Shown: positions 21,095-55,706, counted from the first letter of the stretch. The stretch is DNA of 64,000 nt from an uncultured Candidatus Saccharibacteria bacterium (GCA_964426755.1 CAYRRR010000001.1:58946-122945); one strand, 5' to 3'. The notes: generated by a model from the letters alone, not told the origin. A program made the numbers and translations.

Positions 21095-21381
21095 CCATGG
21101 AATTTCTAGACTATCAAACACTAAAAATCGAGATCATTGGCTTGCTTGGTGCAATATTAATTTTGATAGGCTTTTATAGAACAAGTATAGGCAAGTGGCA
21201 AACAAATAGCTTTTGGTATGAACTTGATAATTTGATCGGGTCTTTGTTATTGGCCGTGTATCATGTTTTAAACAAAACATATGTCGCGTTAATACTGAAT
21301 GTGGTATGGTCAGTCGTAGCCTTTAAGGGTATTACAGCCTATCGAGAGCGTAGAAAAGTTAGTAAGCGTGTGAAGCGCTAG
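21091..21381 (+). CDS. small membrane protein (96 aa)
   Basis: ATGA start/stop overlap with the preceding gene. Three hydrophobic helices. No family recognised. Confidence 0.5.
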   Translation: MTMEFLDYQTLKIEIIGLLGAILILIGFYRTSIGKWQTNSFWYELDNLIGSLLLAVYHVLNKTYVALILNVVWSVVAFKGITAYRERRKVSKRVKR

Positions 21382-21432
21382 AGTTGTTCAAAAAGGCAAA
21401 AGATTATAAAATACTTTTTGCGTATCTTGCAC

Positions 21433-21519
21433 GCGGACGTGGCGGAATTGGTAGACGCGCTGGCTTGAGGGGCCAGTGGGAGCAATCCTGTGAAGGTTCA
21501 AGTCCTTTCGTCCGCACCA
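21433..21519 (+). tRNA. tRNA-Leu (anticodon GAG), type II with long variable arm, CCA encoded
   Basis: Hand fold: acceptor GCGGACG/CGTCCGC. Anticodon stem CTGGC/GCCAG with loop TTGAGGG. T arm GAAGG-TTCAAGT-CCTTT. Discriminator A followed by CCA. Confidence 0.92.
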
Positions 21520-21556
21520 TTGATTGAGTTTCTTCCGAAATAATTAGGAGTTTTGC

Positions 21557-22273
21557 GTGAATGATGAAATAGAACAAAGTCCCTCGTTTGAGCATAGAAA
21601 GCCCGATCCATTAGCAGAAGAGCAATATAAAGATTTCTTTGTCGAGCGGTTAACGCTAGAGGTAGATGATGTTACTGCTTCGTATAGCGTTTATGTATTT
21701 ACGCCTGACGATGAAATGCCTGAAGAAATAGCAGCTTGGCTTCATTATCGCACGATGACAGAGCCGGTGGTCGCAGCTGAGAATGACGGTGATTTTACGC
21801 GATTTAAAAGTACCGAGTATATAAAAGAGCGTTTCTTGCAGGACAAAGGCGGACGCACACTTTACGTTGCTGTAGATGAGGAAAGCGGGTCTATAGATGG
21901 TATTGCGTGGCTTCATCCTCTTCACAACAACCAAGTAGATTACTTGTTGGTGCAAGCTGGCCGCAAGGCACTTGATGATGAAACAATCCTACCTAATGAG
22001 CTCGCAACTATTGCCACTCGAGAATATGGTAGGGCGGTGCGCAAGGATATGTCATTACGGCTTGGCGCGCTTTCAATTGATAAATGTTTCGCAAGCAATG
22101 AAACAACACGAGGGGTTGTCGGTATATTTGGCGATGGCGATAACATAGCATTAGAACTTATAAATTCTGGTAAATTACCACAAGGTACGTCTATGCGAAC
22201 TATTGAAAATGGGCTTGGCTGGGTGATATTGATGGCAATGCGAGACAGGGGCGATGAAGTAACGTATACGTAA
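21557..22273 (+). CDS. hypothetical protein (238 aa; weak GNAT-like beta-strand pattern)
   Basis: Long ORF between two tRNA genes. LYVAVDEESGSIDGIAWL resembles the GNAT beta4 strand, but no clear acetyl-CoA motif was seen. Confidence 0.5.
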   Translation: MNDEIEQSPSFEHRKPDPLAEEQYKDFFVERLTLEVDDVTASYSVYVFTPDDEMPEEIAAWLHYRTMTEPVVAAENDGDFTRFKSTEYIKERFLQDKGGRTLYVAVDEESGSIDGIAWLHPLHNNQVDYLLVQAGRKALDDETILPNELATIATREYGRAVRKDMSLRLGALSIDKCFASNETTRGVVGIFGDGDNIALELINSGKLPQGTSMRTIENGLGWVILMAMRDRGDEVTYT

Positions 22274-22319
22274 TGTTGAAAAACAGATAAGAGTACCGTA
22301 TAATATCTCAGTCTCATAG

Positions 22320-22396
22320 GGGCGCTTAGCTCAGCTGGCTAGAGCACTTCGTTTACACCGAAGGGGTCGGGGGTTCGAGTCCCTCAGCGCCCACCA
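22320..22396 (+). tRNA. tRNA-Val (anticodon TAC), CCA encoded
   Basis: Acceptor GGGCGCT/AGCGCCC. Anticodon stem CTTCG/CGAAG with loop TTTACAC. T arm GGGGG-TTCGAGT-CCCTC. TATAAT box at 22299-22304. Confidence 0.93.
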
Positions 22397-22406
22397 TACA
22401 AATAGT

Positions 22407-22429
22407 CCATCCGAAAGGATGGGTTTTTT
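22407..22429 (+). terminator. rho-independent terminator after tRNA-Val
   Basis: CCATCC-GAAA-GGATGG hairpin followed by G and T6. The outer TACAAA/TTTGTA pairing extends the stem. Confidence 0.7.
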
Positions 22430-22560
22430 GTATGGGTATTGTCTAGGCTTAGCCTATGATCCCCCGGGTCGGGGTGAGAGCTGCCTGTGGCAGTTTGCAA
22501 GGAAGTCTTCTCTTGAAAGCTTGCTTTCAAAGATGAAGTTTCGGGCCTGTCGAATCTAGG

Positions 22561-22582
22561 TCGAGTCCCTCAGTGTCTACTA
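22561..22582 (+). repeat. decayed direct copy of the tRNA-Val 3' end (T-loop to CCA)
   Basis: TCGAGTCCCTCAGTGTCTACTA versus tRNA TCGAGTCCCTCAGCGCCCACCA. The first 13 nt are identical and the remaining 9 nt differ only by four C-to-T transitions. Confidence 0.7.
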
Positions 22583-22672
22583 TAAAGTACCGATCATTGT
22601 TAACCGGTTTTTAAGTACAAAATTTTAAAATTTATAATTCTCGACTATACTCGTAATTATAAATAAAGGAGT

Positions 22673-23413
22673 GTGACCATGTGGGTTTTAATTATCATCA
22701 TTGTATTTATACTGATTACGGGTATTCGGATTATAAATCAATATGAACGAGGTGTAATATTAACACTTGGAAAGTACACTGGTACCAGAAGTCCTGGGTT
22801 GAACATTATTATTCCTATCATTCAAGTGATGAAAAAGGTTGATGTGCGCTCGACACCTGTTGATGTGCCAAAACAAGAAGTAATCACTAAAGATAACGTC
22901 ACTATCGGTGTGGATGCGGTGGTGTATTTTAGAGTCATTTCAGCTGAAAAAGCAGTACTAGAAACAACCAACTATACTTATGCTACTGCTCAATTTGCCC
23001 AGGCTGCGCTTAGAGACGTTGTAGGCAACGTTGAGCTGGATGAGCTCTTAAGTAAGCGTGACGAAATAAGCCAGCAAATTAAAAAAGTGGTAGATAGTGA
23101 GACCGATAAATGGGGTATTGATGTCGAGAACGTAAAAATTCAGAATATTGAGCTACCGCAAGATATGAAACGAGCAATGGCCAAACAGGCTGAGGCCGAA
23201 AGAGAGCGACGAGCGGTTATCATTACGGCTGAAGGTGAAAAGGCGGCAGCTCAACAGGTGGCTGAAGCAGCACAGATGCTTAGCAAGGTTAAGGGCGGTG
23301 TTTCAATCAGGACCCTGCAAACGCTAGAGAAAATATCGGTAGAGCCGTCACAAAAAAGTGTGTTTGTGCTACCGGTTGAGTTATTAGAAAATCTTCAAAA
23401 ACTTACGAAATAA
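22673..23413 (+). CDS. SPFH/band-7 (stomatin/slipin-like) membrane protein
   Basis: 246 aa. N-terminal TM helix, then SPFH blocks (RIINQYERGVILTLGKY, QEVITKDNVTIGVDAVVYFRV) and an ERERRA coiled-coil region. AAAGGAG SD upstream. Confidence 0.9.
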   Translation: MTMWVLIIIIVFILITGIRIINQYERGVILTLGKYTGTRSPGLNIIIPIIQVMKKVDVRSTPVDVPKQEVITKDNVTIGVDAVVYFRVISAEKAVLETTNYTYATAQFAQAALRDVVGNVELDELLSKRDEISQQIKKVVDSETDKWGIDVENVKIQNIELPQDMKRAMAKQAEAERERRAVIITAEGEKAAAQQVAEAAQMLSKVKGGVSIRTLQTLEKISVEPSQKSVFVLPVELLENLQKLTK

Positions 23414-23464
23414 CTTGTTAAAAAGTTTACAAGCGAAGCTTAAAAGCAGGCTTATAATTTTATT

Positions 23465-23824
23465 ATGGCAGGTGAAGAGTATATTCGGGTTGCAGCAAGT
23501 AATCTGCAGCGGGCAGCAGTTGCTAAGCAAAATGAAGCTAACGAAATTCGAGTTCAAATTGGCAGACTGGAAGAAGAGCGTCATAAAAAAGTCCAAGATA
23601 TTGAGTCAGAGGTCAATCGCAACAATGCAATCTCGTCAAACCCAAATGTTGATGATGAACGGCGTGCACTTGCAGCACGACAGAGCATTAAATTAGAAAG
23701 CGATCGCTCGAACCTTGAGAATGATATTGCTCACCGGCGGTCGCAATTAGAGCAAAAATTGAGAGAGATTGAAGACCAAGCTCGTGACTGGCAAGATAAA
23801 GTCAGTGAGCTTACTAATCTGTAG
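23465..23824 (+). CDS. coiled-coil protein (119 aa), unknown function
   Basis: Sequence is highly charged and heptad-like throughout (RVQIGRLEEERHKKVQDIESEV...LEQKLREIEDQARDWQDKV). It follows the SPFH gene. Confidence 0.55.
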   Translation: MAGEEYIRVAASNLQRAAVAKQNEANEIRVQIGRLEEERHKKVQDIESEVNRNNAISSNPNVDDERRALAARQSIKLESDRSNLENDIAHRRSQLEQKLREIEDQARDWQDKVSELTNL

Positions 23825-24000
23825 TAATTGTAATTTCACCCCTGATCCGCTATTATAAGTTTGCCTTATTCTTAATTTAGGGGTCCCCAACTTGAGGGGA
23901 TTCAAGTTGGGAAAAGGTACTGACTATATTTGTTGTATTGTGGTTTTTTGGAAGCTTTGCTTTCAAAAAGCTTCGATATCAAATATTTACGCAGTGATGT

Positions 24001-24076
24001 GGCGCTTTAGCTCAGTTGGTAGAGCAGAGGCCTGAAGAGCCTTGTGTCCCCAGTTCGAGTCTGGGAGGCGCCACCA
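24001..24076 (+). tRNA. tRNA-Phe (anticodon GAA), CCA encoded
   Basis: Acceptor GGCGCTT/AGGCGCC. Anticodon stem GAGGC/GCCTT with loop CTGAAGA. T arm CCCAG-TTCGAGT-CTGGG. Confidence 0.95.
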
Positions 24077-24221
24077 TAAATATTTTGTAACCTTTCGGCT
24101 AGAAAATATTTATCATGTTCACCAAGCGCGAACTGGATAGCTACGAAGCAGCCAGTTCGTTCGTAAGAAACTATCGCAGGAGCTTGCTCCGAGAAAGTTT
24201 AGAAGCGTGCCGAAGGCAGCC

Positions 24222-24237
24222 CTGGAAGGCGCCACCA
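24222..24237 (+). repeat. direct copy of the tRNA-Phe 3' end
   Basis: CTGGAAGGCGCCACCA versus tRNA CTGGGAGGCGCCACCA, 15 of 16 identical. It ends 161 nt after the tRNA 3' end. Confidence 0.75.
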
Positions 24238-24271
24238 GTTTAAAAAAATAAGGGCGGGATGCCCTTTTATT

Positions 24272-25666
24272 ATGTCTGAAATTGAGCAACTACGACCAAG
24301 AATAGTCGGTACTGAGCTTGAGTTTGGGGTAGCGTTCGAGTTAAGAGGCGGCTATCGTCATCTAACTTCACCGTACAAACTTTTACTGAATAATATACCG
24401 ACAAATGTTATATCACATCGTAATAATCCAACCTCCAATGATTATTTTTTAGAAAATGGTGGTCGTTATTATCTGGATATGAGACATCATTGGGAGTATG
24501 CGACTCCAGAATGTGCTACTTTTGCTGACGCTGTTACGTATGACATTGCGGGTGAAGATTTTATTTGCGACCATTTTAGCTCACCGCTTGCTCAAGAAAT
24601 TTTCGAAAATGCTGGTATATTTAAGAAAGTTTCTGATCATAGTGAAGGTCAGACGCAGACTGCTGGAGCGCACGAGAACTATCACACGGATAGAATTAAT
24701 CTTGGATTTGAATATAACAGGAAAAAAAGTCTTTTTGTAGCTGGTCTTGCATCTCATCTAATAACTCGCTCGGTTTTTACTGGTGCTGGTTCAGTAGATG
24801 CCGATGGGGTGTTTCATAAAACTCAAAAGTTGCGCACCCTCACACGAACACAAAGCGGAAGCACCACCAGCGACAAGCCCATAGTTAACACACGTATTGA
24901 GTCTCTGGCAGAAGGGGAGCATGAGCGCGTGCATATAATCAGCGGGGATCCAAACATTTCACCGTGGGCTGGATGGATGAAGCTTGGCACCACTAGCCTT
25001 GTTCTGCGATTACTGGAGCATAGTTCATTTCCCATAGAAGCAGTTATTGCTAATGAGCGCATGGTAGAAGCGGCTGTCGCAATAGGCAGTACTGCTGCGC
25101 TTGACACATTGGTTGTCATTGAAGGTGGAAAAAGCGCCACGGCATTAGATGTTCAAGAAATAGTATTTGATGCTGCAGAAGAGCTAGGCAGAAAATATGA
25201 GTTACCACCTGAGGAGTACGCAGTTTTGGGCGAATGGGAAGCCGTAATACAAGATTTACGTCAAGACCCAGAGAGGTGCATGGACAGAATCGATTGGCTT
25301 TCTTGCCGTTACGTTATCGAAAGTGCCGTTAATGCAGAAGAAAGAAAAAAACGAGACCTCGGGTACACTATGCTATACCCCGGTGGTGGTTTTGGACTTA
25401 AACTGAGGGATCGTAGCAGATTTAAGATGACACCTACCAGGGAAGAGATTGTTCGCGCACGAACCACTCCGCCTGCTGACACTCGGGCTGTGCTAAGAGG
25501 AGAGGCTATACGCCAATTTAAAATGAATAATGTAAATGGAGTAATCGGCTGGGATTTTGCGCGTAACGACACTAAGCCTAAAAAAATTGCCAGAATTATG
25601 TTTAATGACCCTTATGACCATGATGTCAGTAGGCTAAATAAGTGGCTTAAGGCTACTCTTAGCTAA
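24272..25666 (+). CDS. Pup ligase / Pup deamidase family protein (PafA/Dop-like carboxylate-amine ligase)
   Basis: 464 aa with family blocks in canonical order: RIVGTELEFG, ENGGRYYLDMRHHWEYATPEC, GAHENY, PIVNTR, RVHIISGDPNIS, MKLGTTSLVLRLLE, ATALDVQ, IDWL and TPPADTRAVLRGEAI. No SD seen. Confidence 0.82.
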   Translation: MSEIEQLRPRIVGTELEFGVAFELRGGYRHLTSPYKLLLNNIPTNVISHRNNPTSNDYFLENGGRYYLDMRHHWEYATPECATFADAVTYDIAGEDFICDHFSSPLAQEIFENAGIFKKVSDHSEGQTQTAGAHENYHTDRINLGFEYNRKKSLFVAGLASHLITRSVFTGAGSVDADGVFHKTQKLRTLTRTQSGSTTSDKPIVNTRIESLAEGEHERVHIISGDPNISPWAGWMKLGTTSLVLRLLEHSSFPIEAVIANERMVEAAVAIGSTAALDTLVVIEGGKSATALDVQEIVFDAAEELGRKYELPPEEYAVLGEWEAVIQDLRQDPERCMDRIDWLSCRYVIESAVNAEERKKRDLGYTMLYPGGGFGLKLRDRSRFKMTPTREEIVRARTTPPADTRAVLRGEAIRQFKMNNVNGVIGWDFARNDTKPKKIARIMFNDPYDHDVSRLNKWLKATLS

Positions 25667-25714
25667 TGAAACTTGAGATATAATGTGAAATAACGTATAA
25701 TTTTCCTCTGTTAT

Positions 25715-25790
25715 GCGGGTGTAGCTCAGTTGATAGAGCGCTTCCTTGCCAAGGAAGAGGCCACGAGTTTGAGTCTCGTCACCCGCACCA
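25715..25790 (+). tRNA. tRNA-Gly (anticodon GCC), CCA encoded
   Basis: Acceptor GCGGGTG/CACCCGC. Anticodon stem CTTCC/GGAAG with loop TTGCCAA. T arm ACGAG-TTTGAGT-CTCGT. TATAAT box at 25696-25701. Confidence 0.95.
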
Positions 25791-25819
25791 AACACATTTT
25801 AGAAAATGACCTCAATAAA

Positions 25820-25843
25820 ACGTCGAGCAAATCGGCGTTTTTT
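25820..25843 (+). terminator. rho-independent terminator after tRNA-Gly
   Basis: ACGTCGA-GCAAA-TCGGCGT hairpin (one G-U pair) followed by T5. Confidence 0.6.
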
Positions 25844-25892
25844 GCTTATACCCAAACTAGGACTCTAACTTCACCTCTGTTATCATATTGTT

Positions 25893-26615
25893 ATGGACAT
25901 TAACCACAAAATTGCCGCAATTAAACAAAAACCTGCTGAATGTATGCAGACTTCGGCAACACAATTACTGTCATTTTTCGACCCTACTATTAAAGTGGAT
26001 GATGTCATTAATGAAGTACCAGTATATGTTGAAAATGGTGAAAAAATAGGCACATCACCAGGCCATTTAGCCACTTACTTTGTTCAAAAAGGCTATAAGA
26101 CGACGGTTTACATATTCGATGTCGAACTATTCGATTTAAGTTGGGAAATGACTAGCGGAAGTGAAATTATTGAATTATTAAAGCAGAGACAAAAATATAT
26201 TCCTGCTAATTCGTGGCTCGCAAAATATCACCATATACTTGTCGACGGATGGGAGTTATTTGTCAAAGCGGGTGGCAGCTTTGCTCAACCCCCTCTCACG
26301 GCGCAGTTAATTAAAGATTTGCTTATAAAAAGTCCAATCTTAGTTATGGTTAACTCCACATACCTTAATCATCAATCAAAACAGCAATACGATAAAAAGA
26401 AAGATAAATTTGAGGACGACGCGATTAAAGGCCGCTCGCTAACTCATGGGGTTACATGCACGGGATATAAAGATGGTAGATTTTTGATTGTTGACCCCGA
26501 CCCACCTGAGGGGCGAGAACAGCACCGCTGGATACAGTCAGACCACCTGATTGCTTCTATAATGGCCGCACAAACCGAATCTGATAACCTGCTGATGGTC
26601 ATAGAGCAAGAATAA
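25893..26615 (+). CDS. putative papain-fold / peptidase C39-like cysteine peptidase
   Basis: 240 aa. Q-x5-C pattern near the N-terminus (KQKPAECMQTSATQLL). Candidate His and Asp later in the protein (SLTHGVTCTGY, LIVDPD). The call is based on motifs only. Confidence 0.45.
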   Translation: MDINHKIAAIKQKPAECMQTSATQLLSFFDPTIKVDDVINEVPVYVENGEKIGTSPGHLATYFVQKGYKTTVYIFDVELFDLSWEMTSGSEIIELLKQRQKYIPANSWLAKYHHILVDGWELFVKAGGSFAQPPLTAQLIKDLLIKSPILVMVNSTYLNHQSKQQYDKKKDKFEDDAIKGRSLTHGVTCTGYKDGRFLIVDPDPPEGREQHRWIQSDHLIASIMAAQTESDNLLMVIEQE

Positions 26616-27694: not shown

Positions 27695-27979
27695 ATGATT
27701 AGTGATATTAAGAAACGAGCATTGCACCGAGCCAAGATTTTAGAAGGTCAAATGCGTGGTATCCAAAAGATGATTGAAAACGAAAATTACTGTATGGACA
27801 TACTCACGCAGAGTCTTGCTATCAAAAAGTCCATCGGTTCATTAAATAAGTTAATACTTGAGAACCACGTGCGAACACACATACAGGAGAATCTTGGTTC
27901 TGGCTCGGCTAAAGATCACGAAAAAGCCGTTGAGGAGCTACTGGCCTTATACGAGCTATCAAATGTAAGAAGTAAGTAA
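27695..27979 (+). CDS. csoR: CsoR/RcnR/FrmR-family metal-sensing transcriptional repressor
   Basis: 94 aa. LHRAKILEGQMRGIQKMIENENYCMDILTQSLAIKKSI is the DUF156 core and includes the Cys of the metal site. Confidence 0.85.
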   Translation: MISDIKKRALHRAKILEGQMRGIQKMIENENYCMDILTQSLAIKKSIGSLNKLILENHVRTHIQENLGSGSAKDHEKAVEELLALYELSNVRSK

Positions 27980-27986
27980 AGGGGGA

Positions 27987-28427
27987 ATGATGAAAAAAGA
28001 AAGCATTATGGTCGGCATTATCGGGTTGCTGGCTGGATTACTAATAGCTGGCTCAGCAGCGGTGCTAGCCGTTAACAACGACAATCACTCAATGATGGGT
28101 ATGATGGGTATGGACGCTAGTCACTCACATCAGCAAGAGGCATCAAATCACGGCGAGATGTCTATGAGCGAAATGACCCAGCAGCTCAAAAACAAAACGG
28201 GTGATGATTTTGACAAGGCATTTATTGAAATGATGATAAGCCATCACGAAGGTGCAGTAGATATGGCAGAGCTCATCCCCTCACGCGCTAAGCATGATGA
28301 AGTTAAGCAACTTGGCGAGGCAATTATTACTGCTCAAACTAAAGAAATTGCTGATATGAAGCAGTGGCAAAATGACTGGGGTTACTCTACTGATGAAATG
28401 ATGGATATGATGCACGGCAGTCACTAA
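27987..28427 (+). CDS. DUF305 family protein (exported, Met/His-rich, copper-resistance associated)
   Basis: 146 aa. N-terminal TM/signal segment. Met/His-rich segment MMGMMGMDASHSH. DUF305 block DFDKAFIEMMISHHEGAVDMA. Confidence 0.85.
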   Translation: MMKKESIMVGIIGLLAGLLIAGSAAVLAVNNDNHSMMGMMGMDASHSHQQEASNHGEMSMSEMTQQLKNKTGDDFDKAFIEMMISHHEGAVDMAELIPSRAKHDEVKQLGEAIITAQTKEIADMKQWQNDWGYSTDEMMDMMHGSH

Positions 28428-28428
28428 A

Positions 28429-30450
28429 ATGGACCACTCACACCACAGCAATCACCAACATTCAGAGCATCAAGAACACGACAAGCATGCTGGACACAGC
28501 CCGAATATGTTCAAGGCTAAATTTTGGTGGAGCTTGCTATTAACGATACCAGTACTTTTGTATTCGGAAACAGTCATGAGCTGGTTGAACTTCCAGATGC
28601 CAGCATTTACAGGAAGTGAGTGGATACCAGCGATTTTAGGTATTGTTATCTATTTCTACGGGGGCATGGTCTTTCTTAGAGGTGCGAAAGCCGAAATTGC
28701 TTCTCGCATACCTGGAATGATGACCCTAATCTCGATGGCAATAACGGTTGCCTTCACTTACAGTCTTGCCGTATCGCTTAATTTGGTAGATGGCATGGAC
28801 TTCTGGTGGGAGCTAGCAACGCTCGTAACGATCATGCTACTTGGTCACTGGCTAGAAATTGCAAGCGTCAGCAATGCACAAGGGGCTCTAAAAGAGTTAG
28901 CAAAGTTACTGCCTGATAAAGCCGAGAAAGTAACATCTGAGGGTACTCAAAGTGTTGCAGTATCTGAGTTAAGAGTGGGTGACAACGTATTGGTTCGTCC
29001 TGGTTCGAGCGTGCCAGTTGATGGAGAAGTTATTAAGGGTGAATCTGATGTAAACGAGTCAATGTTAACGGGTGAATCCAAACCGATGAAGAAGAAGGTC
29101 AAAGACGAGGTAATCGCAGGCACGATTAACGGCAGCGGTGCTTTGACGATAAAAGTTACAAAAACAGGCGATGATACCGCGTTAGCAGGAGTCATGAAGC
29201 TAGTTGCTGACGCGCAAAAAAGTAAATCGAGGACTCAAGTTCTTGCTGACAAAGCAGCCTTCTACCTAACTTTTATTGCAATAGCGGCGGCAATTGCAAC
29301 TATGGTTGGTTGGACATTGTTCAGCAACGAGTCAACTTCATTCGTACTTGAGCGAGTTGTAACAGTATTGATCATTGCCTGTCCTCACGCTCTCGGCTTG
29401 GCGATCCCGCTCGTCACAGCTATATCAACTACTACTGCAGCTAAAAATGGTCTACTGGTGCGCCAACGCATGGCTTTAGAATTAGCGCGAAATATTGATG
29501 TCGTGCTTTTTGACAAAACCGGAACCCTTACCAAAGGAGAACAGGGCGTAGTAGATATTTATGCAGCCGACAATGATAAAAACAAATTACTAGCACTGGC
29601 GGCTGCGGTTGAGTCAGAGTCAGAACACCCAATTGCTAGAGCAATTATGCTCTCGGCAGATGAACGCAATCTCAAAATTAGAAAATCCAATAAGTTTTCT
29701 GCCCTCTCAGGACGAGGGGCAAAAGCAATTGTAGACGGTAGAACCATACATGTTGGAGGGCCTAGACTTCTTGAAGAACTTAAAGCAGATCCAACGCAAG
29801 AATTAGCTATTGCTGCCGATACTGCCGGTAAAGATGGCAAAACTGTCGTCTATGTAATAGAAGACAACAAAATATTAGGTGCAGTCATGCTGGCTGATGC
29901 AATCCGTGAAGAGTCAAAAAATGCGATTTCTCTTCTGCGGTCCTCTGGAATGCAGGTAGCTATGCTTACGGGAGATTCCCAGGAAGTGGCTGCTTGGGTA
30001 GCTAAAGAGTTGGACATTGATGAGTACTTCGCAGAAGTATTGCCCGAAAACAAGGCAGCAGTTGTCAGTAGACTGCAGTCTGACGGTAGCCGTGTGGCGA
30101 TGGTAGGCGATGGGGTGAATGACGCGCCGGCTCTTGCTCAAGCCGATGTTGGCATTGCGATTGGTGCCGGCACAGACGTAGCTATTGAAGCAGCTGGCAT
30201 AATACTTGCAAGTAGTGATCCTCGAGGGGTGGCAAAAATCGTAAAATTATCCAAAGCTACTTACCGTAAGATGGTACAAAATCTTGTTTGGGCAACCGGA
30301 TACAATGTCTTGGCCATTCCCTTGGCAGCGGGAGTGCTGGCAGGCTTTGGTTTTGTGCTATCACCGGCAGCCGGTGCAGTGCTGATGTCTCTCTCGACAA
30401 TTATTGTCGCTGCAAACGCCCAACTGCTGCGGCGACTGCACCTTAATTAG
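28429..30450 (+). CDS. copB: copper-translocating P1B-type ATPase with His-rich N-terminus and CPH motif (CopB-like)
   Basis: 673 aa. N-terminus [26 protein letters not shown] motif ([11 protein letters not shown]). [15 protein letters not shown] and TGES motifs present. Confidence 0.9.
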
Positions 30451-45555: not shown

Positions 45556-48432
45556 ATGAAGCGATATAATCCAAAAGAAATTGAACCCAAATGGCAACAG
45601 GCATGGGAAGAGGCGGGTATTTACTCGGCTACTGAAAATTCTCATAAGCCAAAAAAATATATTCTAGAGTATTTTCCGTATCCCAGTGGTGCTGCTATGC
45701 ACGTTGGGCATGTGCGTAACTATACTATTGGTGATGCGACCGCGCGCTTCAATCGTATGCGCGGTTATAATGTACTGCATCCGATGGGGTGGGATGCGTT
45801 TGGTTTGCCTGCGGAAAATTACGCACTTAAAACTGGTATTACTCCTCGTAAAGCAATCGATGAAAATACAGCGCGTTTTAAGCGACAACTTGTGCAAATG
45901 GGGTTTGGCTACGATTGGTCGCGCGAGATAGACAGTACGGATCCTGCTTACTATAAATGGACACAGTGGTTCTTTTTGTTGCTTTATAAAAAAGGCTTGG
46001 CGTATCAGCAAGAAAGTTTGCAGTGGTGGTGTCCGGTCGACAAAACGGTATTGGCCAACGAGCAGGTAGAAGCCGGTAAGTGTTGGCGTTGCGGTAATGA
46101 TGTTGAGAAAAAAGCGCTCAAACAGTGGTTTTTTAAGATAACTGACTACGCCGATCGGTTATTGACAGATCTGGATGATCTTGACTGGTCTGATGCAATT
46201 AAAGCAATGCAGCGCAATTGGATTGGCAAAAGTAAAGGTGCTGAAATTGATTTTAATATCAACGGTTCTGACGAGCTTATAAAAGTGTTTACGACTCGTC
46301 CAGATACCTTATTTGGTGTAACCTTTATGGTTCTGGCTCCAGAGCATCATATTGTAAAAAGTATTACTACCAAAGATCAAAAGAATGCGGTCGAAAACTA
46401 CATCAAACAAGCACAAAATAAAAGTGATATTGAGCGTCAGGAGACGGCAGCGGAGCAAAAAACGGGCGTATTCACTGGCGCGTATGCTATTAACCCGGTT
46501 AATAATGAAAAGATTCCTATTTGGATTGCCGATTATGTATTGATGGGCTATGGTACAGGCGCTATTATGGCCGTCCCCGCTCATGATCAACGAGATTATG
46601 AGTTCGCAAAAGCATTTAATTTACCAGTAAAGTTTGTAGTTGAACCAACTTTTGGACAAGCGCAGGGCGATGATATGTATAAGAAATCGATTTTTGTGGT
46701 TTTGCGCAATCCTACAACAAACCAGATTATTGTCTTAGATTGGGGTCCGCGCCAAGAACGACACGGCGGTAACATGTTGATTGGTGGTGGTGTAGAGGAT
46801 GGTGAAAGTTATCAGATAGCAGCCGAGCGTGAAATTGTCGAAGAAACAGGCTATAAGAACTTTAAATTTGTTAAAGAAGCCGAGTTTTCTGGCCACGGCT
46901 TTTTTTACTCAAATACTAAAAATAAGAATATGAATGTTTCTGGCAAAGGGTTGCTATTCGATCTCATAGACGAAGAAAAAGCTTCTACAAATCTGGATGA
47001 AGGTGAAAAGAACAAGTTTAAAGTCACATGGCAGCCTGCTGATGCCGTAGCTGCTATGTTGCATGATGGTAACCACGAGGCCTTTTATCGGTATCTCGTG
47101 CTCAATGAAGTTTATAGTGGCGAAGGAGTTATGATTAACTCTGGTGAGTATAATGGCATGTCGTCTGCTGAAGTACGCAATAAAATCATCGCTGATTTAC
47201 AAGCGAAAGGTTTAGCGCAAGAAAAAGTCAATTTTAAAATGCGCGATTGGCTCATAAGTCGCCAACGTTATTGGGGTGCACCGATACCAATGATCCATTG
47301 TCAACAATGCGGTATCGTGCCAGTACCCGAAGATCAATTACCGGTAAAGCTACCCGAACTTTCAAAGTTTGAACCGAGTGGCGATGGCCGCAGCCCTTTA
47401 GCTAACGTGCCCGACTTTGTAAATACGACATGTCCTCAATGTGGTGGCAAAGCCGAGCGCGAAACTGATACGATGGATGGCTTTGCGTGCAGCAGTTGGT
47501 ATTTCTTGCGTTTCGCTGATCCGCATAATGATACCGCTGCTTTCTCTGAAGATAAAGTAGAGTTTTGGTTACCAGTTGATGATTATATTGGCGGCGCAGA
47601 GCATGCCGTCATGCATCTTTTGTATGCACGCTTTTGGACAAAGGTTATGTACGACGAAGGCTTAATTAACTTTACAGAACCATTCACGAGCTTACGGAAT
47701 CAAGGCATGATTCTAGCCCCAGACGGGTTAAAGATGAGTAAAAGTAAGGGTAATACTATAGAGCCCGATGGTTTAATTGACCAAGGTTACGGTGCAGACT
47801 CTATACGGCTCATGGAGCTGTTTATTGGCCCATGGAACCAATCAGCAAACTGGAGTGTGGAAGGTATGGGAGGGACATTTCGATTTCTGCAGCGGGTGTG
47901 GACGCTTGTGCAAGAGTATATTGCTGCTGGTTCAAAGAATACAGCCGGCAATAAAGAATTAATGGTTCTGTCTCATCAAACAATTGCTAAAGTAAGTAAA
48001 GATCTTGAAGCATTTGGCTTTAATACGGCCATTGCGAGTCTCATGGAGCATGTCAATGCTCTCTATAAAATCAAAGCCAAGGACGGTTTTATGGCTAAAG
48101 AATGGGCAATTACCTTTGAGATACTGTTGAAGTTACTGGCGCCATTCGCACCCCATATTACTGAAGAATTGTGGCAAGATTTAGGTAACGAATCCTCAAT
48201 TCATACAGCTGATTGGCCGATTCACGACGAGAAGTATCTTGTTGCTAAGTCGGCAACGATTGTTGTGCAAGTTAACGGCAAGGTTCGGGCAAATATTCAA
48301 ATCCCAGTTGATAGTTCTCAAGAAACAGTCGAACAGGTCGCAAAAACTGACGAAAAAGTGACAATCTATCTTAAGAACAACCCAAAAAAAGTTATATACG
48401 TACGAAATAAGCTCATCAACTTTGTTGTTTGA
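45556..48432 (+). CDS. leuS: leucine--tRNA ligase with an inserted Nudix hydrolase domain (aa ~363-520)
   Basis: 958 aa. HIGH motif (HVGH), CP1 editing blocks (TTRPDTLFGVTF, GTGAIMAVPAHDQRDYEFA), RDWLISRQRYWGAPIP, and KMSKSK. Extra ~158 aa segment carries the Nudix box GGVEDGESYQIAAEREIVEETGY. Confidence 0.96.
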   Translation: MKRYNPKEIEPKWQQAWEEAGIYSATENSHKPKKYILEYFPYPSGAAMHVGHVRNYTIGDATARFNRMRGYNVLHPMGWDAFGLPAENYALKTGITPRKAIDENTARFKRQLVQMGFGYDWSREIDSTDPAYYKWTQWFFLLLYKKGLAYQQESLQWWCPVDKTVLANEQVEAGKCWRCGNDVEKKALKQWFFKITDYADRLLTDLDDLDWSDAIKAMQRNWIGKSKGAEIDFNINGSDELIKVFTTRPDTLFGVTFMVLAPEHHIVKSITTKDQKNAVENYIKQAQNKSDIERQETAAEQKTGVFTGAYAINPVNNEKIPIWIADYVLMGYGTGAIMAVPAHDQRDYEFAKAFNLPVKFVVEPTFGQAQGDDMYKKSIFVVLRNPTTNQIIVLDWGPRQERHGGNMLIGGGVEDGESYQIAAEREIVEETGYKNFKFVKEAEFSGHGFFYSNTKNKNMNVSGKGLLFDLIDEEKASTNLDEGEKNKFKVTWQPADAVAAMLHDGNHEAFYRYLVLNEVYSGEGVMINSGEYNGMSSAEVRNKIIADLQAKGLAQEKVNFKMRDWLISRQRYWGAPIPMIHCQQCGIVPVPEDQLPVKLPELSKFEPSGDGRSPLANVPDFVNTTCPQCGGKAERETDTMDGFACSSWYFLRFADPHNDTAAFSEDKVEFWLPVDDYIGGAEHAVMHLLYARFWTKVMYDEGLINFTEPFTSLRNQGMILAPDGLKMSKSKGNTIEPDGLIDQGYGADSIRLMELFIGPWNQSANWSVEGMGGTFRFLQRVWTLVQEYIAAGSKNTAGNKELMVLSHQTIAKVSKDLEAFGFNTAIASLMEHVNALYKIKAKDGFMAKEWAITFEILLKLLAPFAPHITEELWQDLGNESSIHTADWPIHDEKYLVAKSATIVVQVNGKVRANIQIPVDSSQETVEQVAKTDEKVTIYLKNNPKKVIYVRNKLINFVV

Positions 48433-55525: not shown

Positions 55526-55547
55526 TGGCTGGGGATGAGGGATTCGA
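55526..55547 (-). repeat. perfect 22-nt direct copy of the tRNA-Gln 3' end (T-loop to CCA)
   Basis: Plus-strand TGGCTGGGGATGAGGGATTCGA at 55526-55547 is identical to 55707-55728, the 3' end of tRNA-Gln. Confidence 0.85.
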
Positions 55548-55675
55548 CTTACCTTCGGCGAGCCCACAACTTTTGCTTTGCAAACAAGTTCGCAAGTGAA
55601 GATTGCTTTGCGACATGTCACCGACATGTTTCACCCCGATCACTTTCGTTCGGGTGTTCAAATTGCTGAGCTAAG

Positions 55676-55699
55676 AAAAAACGAGCCCCGAAGACTCGC
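55676..55699 (-). terminator. rho-independent terminator immediately downstream of tRNA-Gln (minus strand)
   Basis: Minus-strand GCGAGUC-UUCG-GGGCUCG imperfect hairpin followed by U6, which is the A-run at 55676-55681 on the plus strand. Confidence 0.6.
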
Positions 55700-55706
55700 C
55701 TTTTCT

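Follow-up and report, generated by a model that had tools for sequence, protein, structure and literature searches.

Genomic islands and prophages that enter tRNA genes by means of tyrosine integrases, such as the tycheposons of Prochlorococcus, leave attL/attR direct repeats. Other mobile DNAs recombine at folded single-stranded sites, as is the case for the attC sites of integrons and the attP site of CTX-phi, and integron cassettes have no recombinase of their own. Elements of the IS110/IS1111 type specify a bridge (seek) RNA, a non-coding structure at the element end with segments that match the target in both senses, and in the rtT RNA/178-bp repeats of the E. coli tyrT operon (RF00391) a unit of ∼170 nt behind a tRNA ends in the last bases of that tRNA, CCA included. 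Finally, Sugahara et al. 2012 (PMC3293823) have described archaeal tRNA genes disrupted by mobile elements, with a 1.8 kb insertion that encodes a recombinase.

The 161-nt unit of interest here lies directly behind a tRNA-Phe gene in a stretch of 64,000 nt that was analysed as a whole (the window in what follows). On balance, and with some reservation, we favor the view that it is a small integrative element that is non-autonomous, amounting to an empty cassette, of a tRNA-targeting family that is widespread in Saccharibacteria. The window carries genes for UvrA, UvrC, LigA, LeuRS, Ddl, a slipin and transporters along with eight dispersed tRNA genes, and is part of the chromosome of a Candidatus Saccharibacteria (TM7) bacterium; homologues of its LigA and slipin that carry an organism name, and the genome records obtained via the slipin, belong to Candidatus Saccharibacteria/Saccharimonadales. 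A phage or cyanobacterial origin was rejected, as the phage collection gave no match and the gene content is that of a housekeeping region. The closest genome compared (L004) has a slipin 98% and a LigA 81% identical to those of the window. The LeuRS of the window (45556-48432, + strand) contains a NUDIX domain at residues 375-511 (E = 1.5e-11), right behind the match to the editing-domain model at residues 220-372.

The positions of the main features are collected in Table 1. As the first-pass annotation had claimed, a near-perfect copy of the tRNA 3' end, CCA included, closes the unit, and the chance probability of a match of this quality (15/16) anywhere in 450 nt is ∼5e-6 by our own arithmetic. 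This copy, referred to as C', covers the 3' T-stem strand, the 3' acceptor strand and the CCA. The hairpins that had been listed for the unit, as well as the GC hairpin with T-run beyond it, were all found where they had been placed. In addition, and beyond what had been noticed before, the T arm recurs within the unit both in reverse complement and as a short direct copy. The distal repeat makes up just the long arm of a tRNA copy that is partial and split by a structured module; positions 1-49 of the tRNA are lacking entirely.

Table 1. Positions of the tRNA-Phe unit, its parts and its neighbors, of two sister units in the window, and of endonuclease-like genes in three comparison loci
Feature	Position	Strand	Basis
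Intact tRNA-Phe(GAA), CCA encoded; target gene	24001..24076	+	ARAGORN; Rfam tRNA 66.5 bits
Hairpin TAAATATTTT..AAAATATTTA (10-bp, AT), abuts CCA	24077..24112	+	sequence, fold
Antisense segment GCGCGAACTGG	24126..24136	+	sequence; family-wide statistics
Inner hairpin GCUAC-GAA-GCAGC, C-GAA-G triloop, inside P1 loop	24140..24152	+	sequence
Short direct copy b, CCAGTTCG, of tRNA-Phe positions 50-57	24152..24159	+	sequence, fold
Structured module of type M2, 62 nt	24160..24221	+	fold; nhmmer homologues
Direct copy C', CTGGAAGGCGCCACCA, of tRNA-Phe 3' end (distal direct repeat)	24222..24237	+	15/16 identical to tail CTGGGAGGCGCCACCA, CCA included
Native terminator-like hairpin (24250-24266) and T-run, abuts Pup-ligase ATG at 24272	24250..24271	+	sequence; L003 comparison
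Pup-ligase/Dop family gene	24272-25666	+	PF03136, E = 4e-75; ATG at 24272
Unit after tRNA-Val(UAC), 186 nt: terminator, P1 hairpin, M1 (22471-22563), decayed 3' copy GGTCGAGTCCCTCAGTGTCTACTA (22559-22582)	22397..22582	+	R1 92.9 bits
Unit after tRNA-Gln(CUG), 181 nt: terminator, antisense, copy b, M1 (55545-55637), perfect 22-nt 3' copy (55526-55547)	55526..55706	-	R1 86 bits
LAGLIDADG ORFs	L006:7523-8206, L031:5296-5952, L143:1929-2621	-	

The AT hairpin that opens the unit stands where other units of this kind begin with a terminator; it is AT-rich and has no T-run, whereas a GC hairpin with T-run occupies the equivalent place in 43 other units. The 3' 8 nt of the antisense segment, CGAACTGG (24129-24136), are the reverse complement of tRNA-Phe positions 50-57, that is, of the 5' T-stem strand and the TTCG of the T loop, and pair with copy b to give a helix denoted P1. 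In L004 the antisense segment of the Phe unit matches at 11 of 11 positions by reading of the sequence. Covarying counterparts of the hairpin within the P1 loop are CCAC-GAA-GUGG (L004), CUGC-GAA-GCAG (L195), GCUCC-GAA-GGAGC (L113) and ACGGC-GAA-GCCGU (L143). Module M2 consists of an outer stem in which AAACU (24168-24172) pairs with AGUUU (24196-24200), an inner hairpin GGAGC-TT-GCTCC (24179-24190) with a CUUG-type loop, an internal loop with AUCGCA opposite GAGAA, and a UGCC-GAA-GGCA hairpin. The motif GCCGAAGG at 24209-24216 does recur in the tRNA-Gln unit, as had been pointed out, but it precedes the distal repeat by 13 nt and not by about 20. The unit folds with -46.5 kcal/mol (z = -2.4 relative to shuffles), which is modest by itself; it is the comparative evidence and not the fold score that raises the unit above chance. 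Neither an ORF nor a sigma-70-like promoter was found within its 161 nt.

Locus L003 shares the gene order of the window (tRNA-Val, slipin, small gene, tRNA-Phe, Pup ligase, tRNA-Gly). In L003 the CCA of tRNA-Phe is followed by 13 nt, aaaatgtttagtt, and then by AAGGGCGGGAGCCCTTTTTATTATG, the same hairpin/terminator and start codon that are found 3' of the second copy in the window, and there is no unit. Because tRNA-Phe of L003 thus runs straight into the downstream hairpin and ATG of the window, we take the unit to be an insertion whose 161 nt are present or absent as one block, with the repeat as boundary. It also follows that the terminator before the Pup-ligase gene lies outside the insertion, since in L003 it sits right behind tRNA-Phe. 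That no space is left for a Shine-Dalgarno sequence or a promoter belonging to this gene, as had been remarked, is true but unrelated to the unit, for L003 has the identical abutment of terminator and ATG without it. The tRNA-Val site of L003 is empty as well, with 66 nt to the slipin gene as compared with 276 nt in the window. As L003 is distant (47% protein identity), it may alternatively have lost the unit.

In L004, tRNA-Phe is followed by a homologous unit with an unrelated first hairpin, mismatches in the stems and a truncated distal repeat. The distal copy has C at position 69, the allele of the tRNA-Phe of the window, and the L004 tRNA itself has A, which suggests either that the distal copy travels with the element or that there was a crossover within the last 7 nt. 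The Phe unit of the window is unchanged in two Logan contigs from different sequencing runs, and a unit of the Phe type is intact behind tRNA-Lys in L195, with compensatory changes in its stems. Polymorphism among relatives, a check that had been proposed for the mobile-element interpretation, is therefore found: an empty site at both tRNA-Phe and tRNA-Val in L003, a diverged and decaying copy in L004, and patchy occupancy of tRNA sites across 80 loci.

The Pup-ligase gene itself has no close relative in a scan of the genome contigs, and the next best homologue, that of L003, is 47% identical. Of the loci examined, just three (the window, L003 and L005) have a homologue in the interval from tRNA-Phe to tRNA-Gly, and the gene is therefore an accessory gene in a tRNA-linked variable region.

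In order to gauge recurrence we have scanned 233 tRNAs in 84 sequences, with 80 Saccharibacteria loci retrieved via the slipin gene. For about 20 of the 233 (Val, Phe, Gly, Ala and Gln) the last 16 nt of the tRNA are copied 107-193 nt downstream. Several tRNAs have two or three units in tandem (L004, L006, L031), with the better-preserved repeat being the one nearer the tRNA in L006, and the same tRNA can have different module types in different genomes. A pattern built on the 5' part of M1, the commonest module, finds related modules in at least 120 metagenome contigs. The kinship that had been noted between the Phe unit and the units behind tRNA-Val and tRNA-Gln holds, with one architecture and related hairpins in all three. 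The tRNA-Val unit looks old and decaying. Most differences between its 3' copy (22559-22582, + strand) and the tRNA are of the C-to-T kind (GCGCCCACCA to GTGTCTACTA), a drift consistent with neutral decay under AT-biased mutation. A published description of the family was not found in the literature searched, nor does Rfam have a family for it, and these are apparently abundant, undescribed small structured insertions of Saccharibacteria in tRNA genes, with the gene kept intact.

Units that follow a tRNA, referred to as 3'-type, have a common order: the intact tRNA, a hairpin (usually a GC stem with T-run, straight after the CCA), a reverse-complement tRNA copy around a point X, a short loop, copy b (a direct copy of the 6-13 nt to the left of X), the module, and C', which runs from X to the CCA. 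The order is mirrored in 5'-type units, not recognized previously, where a displaced promoter region and tRNA positions 1 to X are followed by the module, a short copy of the sequence to the right of X, and the intact tRNA; the complement of the right-of-X copy is often present, and several copies have a TATAAT-like box before the intact tRNA. The tRNA copy that bears the module invariably breaks off on its side toward the intact gene, at a distance of 6-17 nt from the module. The location of X varies between D loop (17-19), position 25-27, anticodon loop (37-39), variable region (44-48) and T loop (53-56); for the Phe unit it falls in the T loop, at about positions 57-61. The direct repeats range from 8 to 64 nt and sometimes reach into locus-specific terminator or promoter sequence (L041, L104). 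In 3'-type units (for example L088, L003 and L115) the terminator usually lies within a longer palindrome, of the form CCA-AAnnAAA...TTTnnTTT-TGG, with arms that reach the CCA of the tRNA and a TGG after the T-run.

The antisense copy is specific to its target. An exact reverse-complement match of at least 10 nt to the tRNA is found in 11 of 23 units and in 6 of ∼199 tRNA trailers that lack a unit, and in 43 M1 units an antisense score of at least 8 is reached for 65% with the unit's own tRNA versus 20% with other tRNAs. The matches in M1 units fall at standard positions ∼42-63, and because they span X the antisense piece could base-pair with both flanks of the module, with b to its left and the beginning of C' to its right.

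Upstream of tRNA-Phe (23879-23975, + strand) there are two strong hairpins, CCCAACTTGA-GGGGAT-TCAAGTTGGG and GAAGCTTT-GCTTTCAA-AAAGCTTC, which are nearly unaltered in L004. The first of these, with its T-loop-like TTCAAGT, could be the remnant of an old 5'-type unit.

Module M1 (∼93 nt) is common to the tRNA-Val and tRNA-Gln units of the window and is laid out as GUGAGA, hairpin P2, UYGCAAGG, a long hairpin P3 that often has a CUUG cap, CGGGG, and hairpin P4, whose loop is GAA. From 11 copies RNAalifold predicted 34 pairs, 27 of them with compensatory change, and a covariance model (R1) located 12 copies in an unbiased 1.3 Mb of Saccharibacteria loci and 129 in 100 metagenome loci. Over these 129 copies 93.9% of the cells are standard pairs as compared with 69.9% in shuffles, a value reached by none of 500, and both-sided changes occur in 32 of the 34 pairs; with slid partners as controls, pairing falls to 32-50%. 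M1 is hence a real structure of a single strand, be it RNA or single-stranded DNA. At one pair, 94 copies have G.U and 14 have G-C, and because of this conserved G.U pair the structure can be assigned to the strand with the sense of the tRNA (96% of the tRNA-linked copies). Against Rfam 15 (ribozymes, riboswitches and sRNAs among its models) the units and modules return only tRNAs and chance-level hits by gathering score and E-value thresholds. M1 copies do not group by tRNA type, and element lineages specialised by tRNA are unsupported by module similarity.

M2 is a shorter relative, with a CUUG-capped hairpin within an outer stem and a C-GAA-G hairpin, and by reading it appears homologous to M1; its AUCGCA/GAGAA loop can form a UCGC/GAGA helix with a G.A mismatch, as at the base of P2 in M1. 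In L195 (tRNA-Lys), the best-preserved relative, AAACU/AGUUU is replaced by AAGCU/AGCUU and GGAGC/GCUCC by AAAGC/GCUUU. As only 3-5 relatives were found, the covariation evidence for M2 itself is thin and its case rests largely on the family.

The genomic context of M1 was established for 145 pattern-matched modules among the matches listed, 4 of which are chance hits inside a coding region in viral contigs. Modules downstream and upstream of a tRNA in the same orientation are about equally frequent (51 and 49 of 145, respectively), 4 are inverted relative to the tRNA and 1 overlaps a tRNA call; the remaining 40, which include the 4 viral chance hits, have no tRNA within 600 nt and are at contig ends, in cargo or at a few non-tRNA hosts. 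More than 20 tRNA species adjoin M1 modules. At three places (L095:3085-3177, L100:382-595, L129:720-806) M1 is found within partial copies of a host that cannot be recognised as a tRNA, in two or three tandem units; this host is a hairpin, AAAGAGCCTACGG-AGGGGGTGGGCACCG-CCGTAGGCTCTTT, where Rfam has no known RNA.

Some units carry cargo genes of 1-5 kb (L072, L043, L012, L206, L089), versions of which the first-pass annotation had no inkling. From a reading of the translated ORFs, the 4.5 kb between tRNA-Gly and the unit in L072 encode a CsoR-like repressor, a DUF305-like protein, a copper P-type ATPase and a reductase, and a comparable copper cassette is present at tRNA-Gln in L206; the cargo genes of L043, L012 and L089 are different ones. 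In L151 three successive cargo blocks form an array, each closing with a short tRNA 3' copy, a terminator hairpin, antisense, b, M1 and C'. In several genomes the cargo behind tRNA-Gly or tRNA-Gln is a copper-type cassette with a small CsoR-like repressor, small proteins and a P-type ATPase, as listed for L072, L206 and L003. In the window a small ORF, a 146-aa ORF and a P-type ATPase are located at 27695-30450 (+), ∼2 kb downstream of tRNA-Gly, and a distal repeat was not found for them. The island behind tRNA-Gly(CCC) in L012 (10117-11503, +) has terminal inverted repeats of ∼60 nt with outer ends TCGAACCC and GGGTTCGA, and its antisense/sense pairing spans a 1.1-kb cargo and not a short loop.

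No recombinase was found in the cargo versions or the L151 array, none among the 30 window ORFs scanned with Pfam, and no tyrosine/serine recombinase motif, by a crude regular expression, in 426 ORFs within 3 kb of 137 modules. Clustering of these 426 ORFs for a recurrent mobility gene gave housekeeping neighbors only, with the exception of a LAGLIDADG gene, and similarity to the modules was not found in phage and plasmid collections. The LAGLIDADG ORF (homing-endonuclease-like, free-standing, 218-230 aa) lies directly upstream of tRNA-Leu(GAG) in the same orientation at 3 loci (Table 1); its last codons enter the first bases of the tRNA in L006 and L143, and in L031 it ends 20 nt upstream.

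The insertion polymorphism, the family architecture, the strand-specific structure, the target-specific antisense copy, the versions with cargo or in arrays, and the lack nearby of any recombinase motif or recurrent recombinase family have each been demonstrated above, and the data on the units fit elements that integrate at tRNA genes, keep them working, carry or flank cargo, accumulate in tandem and decay. The first-pass annotation had left the choice between a mobile element and a small RNA; it is the mobile reading that the polymorphism and the behavior of the family support, the mechanism being our inference. Probably a folded strand guides recombination by an enzyme encoded elsewhere, a mechanism that we favor because the want of an integrase, the structure at the junction and the antisense copy across X recall attC, the attP of CTX-phi and the bridge RNAs of IS110. 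The element would enter at or 3' of loop position X of the tRNA gene and supply or preserve a working tRNA 3' end, followed by the hairpin, and a second copy from X to the CCA would be left at the far end, accounting for the near-perfect repeat. The antisense copy, the sense copy to the left of X and the module may then fold in one strand, RNA or single-stranded DNA, with the module looped out, and the folded site would be recognized by a recombination enzyme encoded elsewhere in the genome, with recombination in trans by way of circular or single-stranded intermediates.

A more ambitious version, which we put forward tentatively and hold to be rather doubtful, is that Saccharibacteria possess a system for integrating cassettes in which tRNA genes, and a few further sites, serve as landing pads. 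Its specificity would lie in the folded strand of the element itself (an antisense copy of the target and a conserved four-helix module exactly at the insertion point), which would be the guide or substrate for a host enzyme, or be itself catalytic as a new class of small ribozyme or guide RNA, and the Phe unit would be a member without cargo. It weighs against the integrative-element view as such that no enzyme, circular junction or excision product was seen. Moreover, the variable repeat length and the run-in of terminator or promoter sequence fit homology-driven recombination or local duplication as well as they fit site-specific integration, and the fact that M1 does not cluster by tRNA is awkward for tRNA-specialised lineages, unless modules are exchanged within genomes.

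With respect to described systems, integrase-type tRNA islands also leave their target tRNA gene intact, place a 3' copy at the far end, accumulate in tandem, carry cargo and are variably present. Unlike them, the units have no integrase and can be as small as ∼120-190 nt; they have a covarying structure exactly at the junction and an antisense copy of the target, and they occur in 5' mirror versions (with a TATAAT-like box in several) and at an X that may also be the D loop, position 26 or the variable region. Integron cassettes and attC are alike in that structure, not sequence, is conserved in one strand at the cassette end, with inverted and direct copies of the target core, and the L151 array beside its primary site, with a structured site closing each block, is arranged as cassettes are. 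However, a tRNA gene takes the place of attI or dif as primary site of the units, no IntI/tyrosine recombinase motif is nearby, the structure is built of three or four helices, with the module bulging out where the crossover lies, as opposed to the one imperfect hairpin of attC, and the GTTRRRY core is not evident by eye. In contrast to IS110/IS1111 elements the mini-units have no ORF, no DEDD recombinase was seen, the matching segments are much longer and there are long direct repeats. The archaeal case (PMC3293823) resembles the units in its displaced tRNA fragment beside a complete gene and in insertion points that are intron positions, but is archaeal, 1.8 kb in length and recombinase-encoding, with introns that are real and spliced. 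The E. coli tyrT locus, for all the likeness of its repeat to the Phe unit, is a single enterobacterial locus without antisense copy, conserved multi-hairpin module or cargo versions, and its Rfam model (RF00391) gives no hit at E ≤ 10 over 21300-26000 and none at the gathering score.

Among the alternatives to an integrative element the one that fares best, which we nonetheless consider unlikely, is that the units are in the first place RNA genes: the tRNA promoter would drive a structured non-coding RNA (through read-through in 3' units, directly in 5' units), which tRNA-processing enzymes would free and which would serve the host or the element, for example as decoy, guide or ribozyme, with DNA mobility being secondary. 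The strong strand-specific covariation with its conserved G.U pair and A.G mismatch, the CUUG, GNRA and GAA loops typical of RNA, and the displaced tRNA promoter in front of 5'-type copies all speak for such a transcript, as does the orientation shared with the tRNA by 100 of 104 tRNA-linked modules; this co-orientation (100 to 4) hints at a role at the level of a transcript rather than purely of DNA, and rtT RNA of the E. coli tyrT operon and 3'ETS-leuZ are precedents. Yet in 3' units a terminator hairpin, usually with T-run, separates the tRNA from the module, and the Phe unit has no sigma-70-like promoter inside. Nor would an RNA gene lead one to expect the patchy occupancy and decaying copies (the tRNA-Val unit of the window, the Phe unit of L004), a module type that varies at one tRNA between genomes, or cargo and array versions that behave as mobile DNA.

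Quite unlikely, in our estimate, is an origin of the units as scars, that is, as fused attL/attR arms of integrase-encoding prophages or islands in tRNA genes that have later lost their interior. No doubt an intact tRNA with a direct repeat of its 3' end is the textbook signature of integration, cargo islands between tRNA and repeat do occur, and archaeal tRNA fragments have been left by insertion of recombinase-bearing elements (PMC3293823). Against this stand the lack of any integrase motif in the cargo versions or within 3 kb of the 137 modules, and of an integrase domain in the 30 window ORFs scanned, together with the location of X, which includes positions 26 and 44-48 that are not hairpin loops. 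Independent deletions would not be expected to leave the same 90-nt structure exactly at X in more than 20 tRNAs, nor would compensatory, strand-specific changes be expected for double-stranded protein-binding arms.

Very improbable is a decayed second tRNA-Phe gene or an intron-bearing tRNA gene with an intron-like insert in the T loop: the module flanks are contiguous in the tRNA and insertion is at loop positions, as for archaeal tRNA introns, but excision of M1, in 160 offset/length variants for each module as far as the contig reached, gave a complete tRNA for just 2 of 141 non-viral modules, and we judge both to be artefactual, a product of the lengths cut. The copy always ends short on the side of the intact gene, there is no group I intron or other Rfam match, and because removal of M1 almost never yields a complete tRNA we have rejected M1 as an intron of a working gene. 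tmRNA, hammerhead-like cores, box C/D guides, group I internal guide sequences and TnpB/IscB guide RNAs were set aside as well, as neither sequence nor arrangement fits any of them.

Independently of mechanism, M1, with its more than 140 copies placed at loop positions of partial tRNA copies, is a structured motif with good support that Rfam lacks, and it poses a direct experimental question; the units also create tRNA fragments that are able to confuse tRNA annotation in genomes of candidate phyla. If the units are indeed self-targeting cassettes that do without a recombinase of their own, they would represent a sequence-programmable way to insert DNA at conserved genes, and they would bear on how ultra-small episymbionts with genomes of ∼1 Mb gain and shuffle accessory genes, with copper-resistance cassettes as a recurrent cargo.
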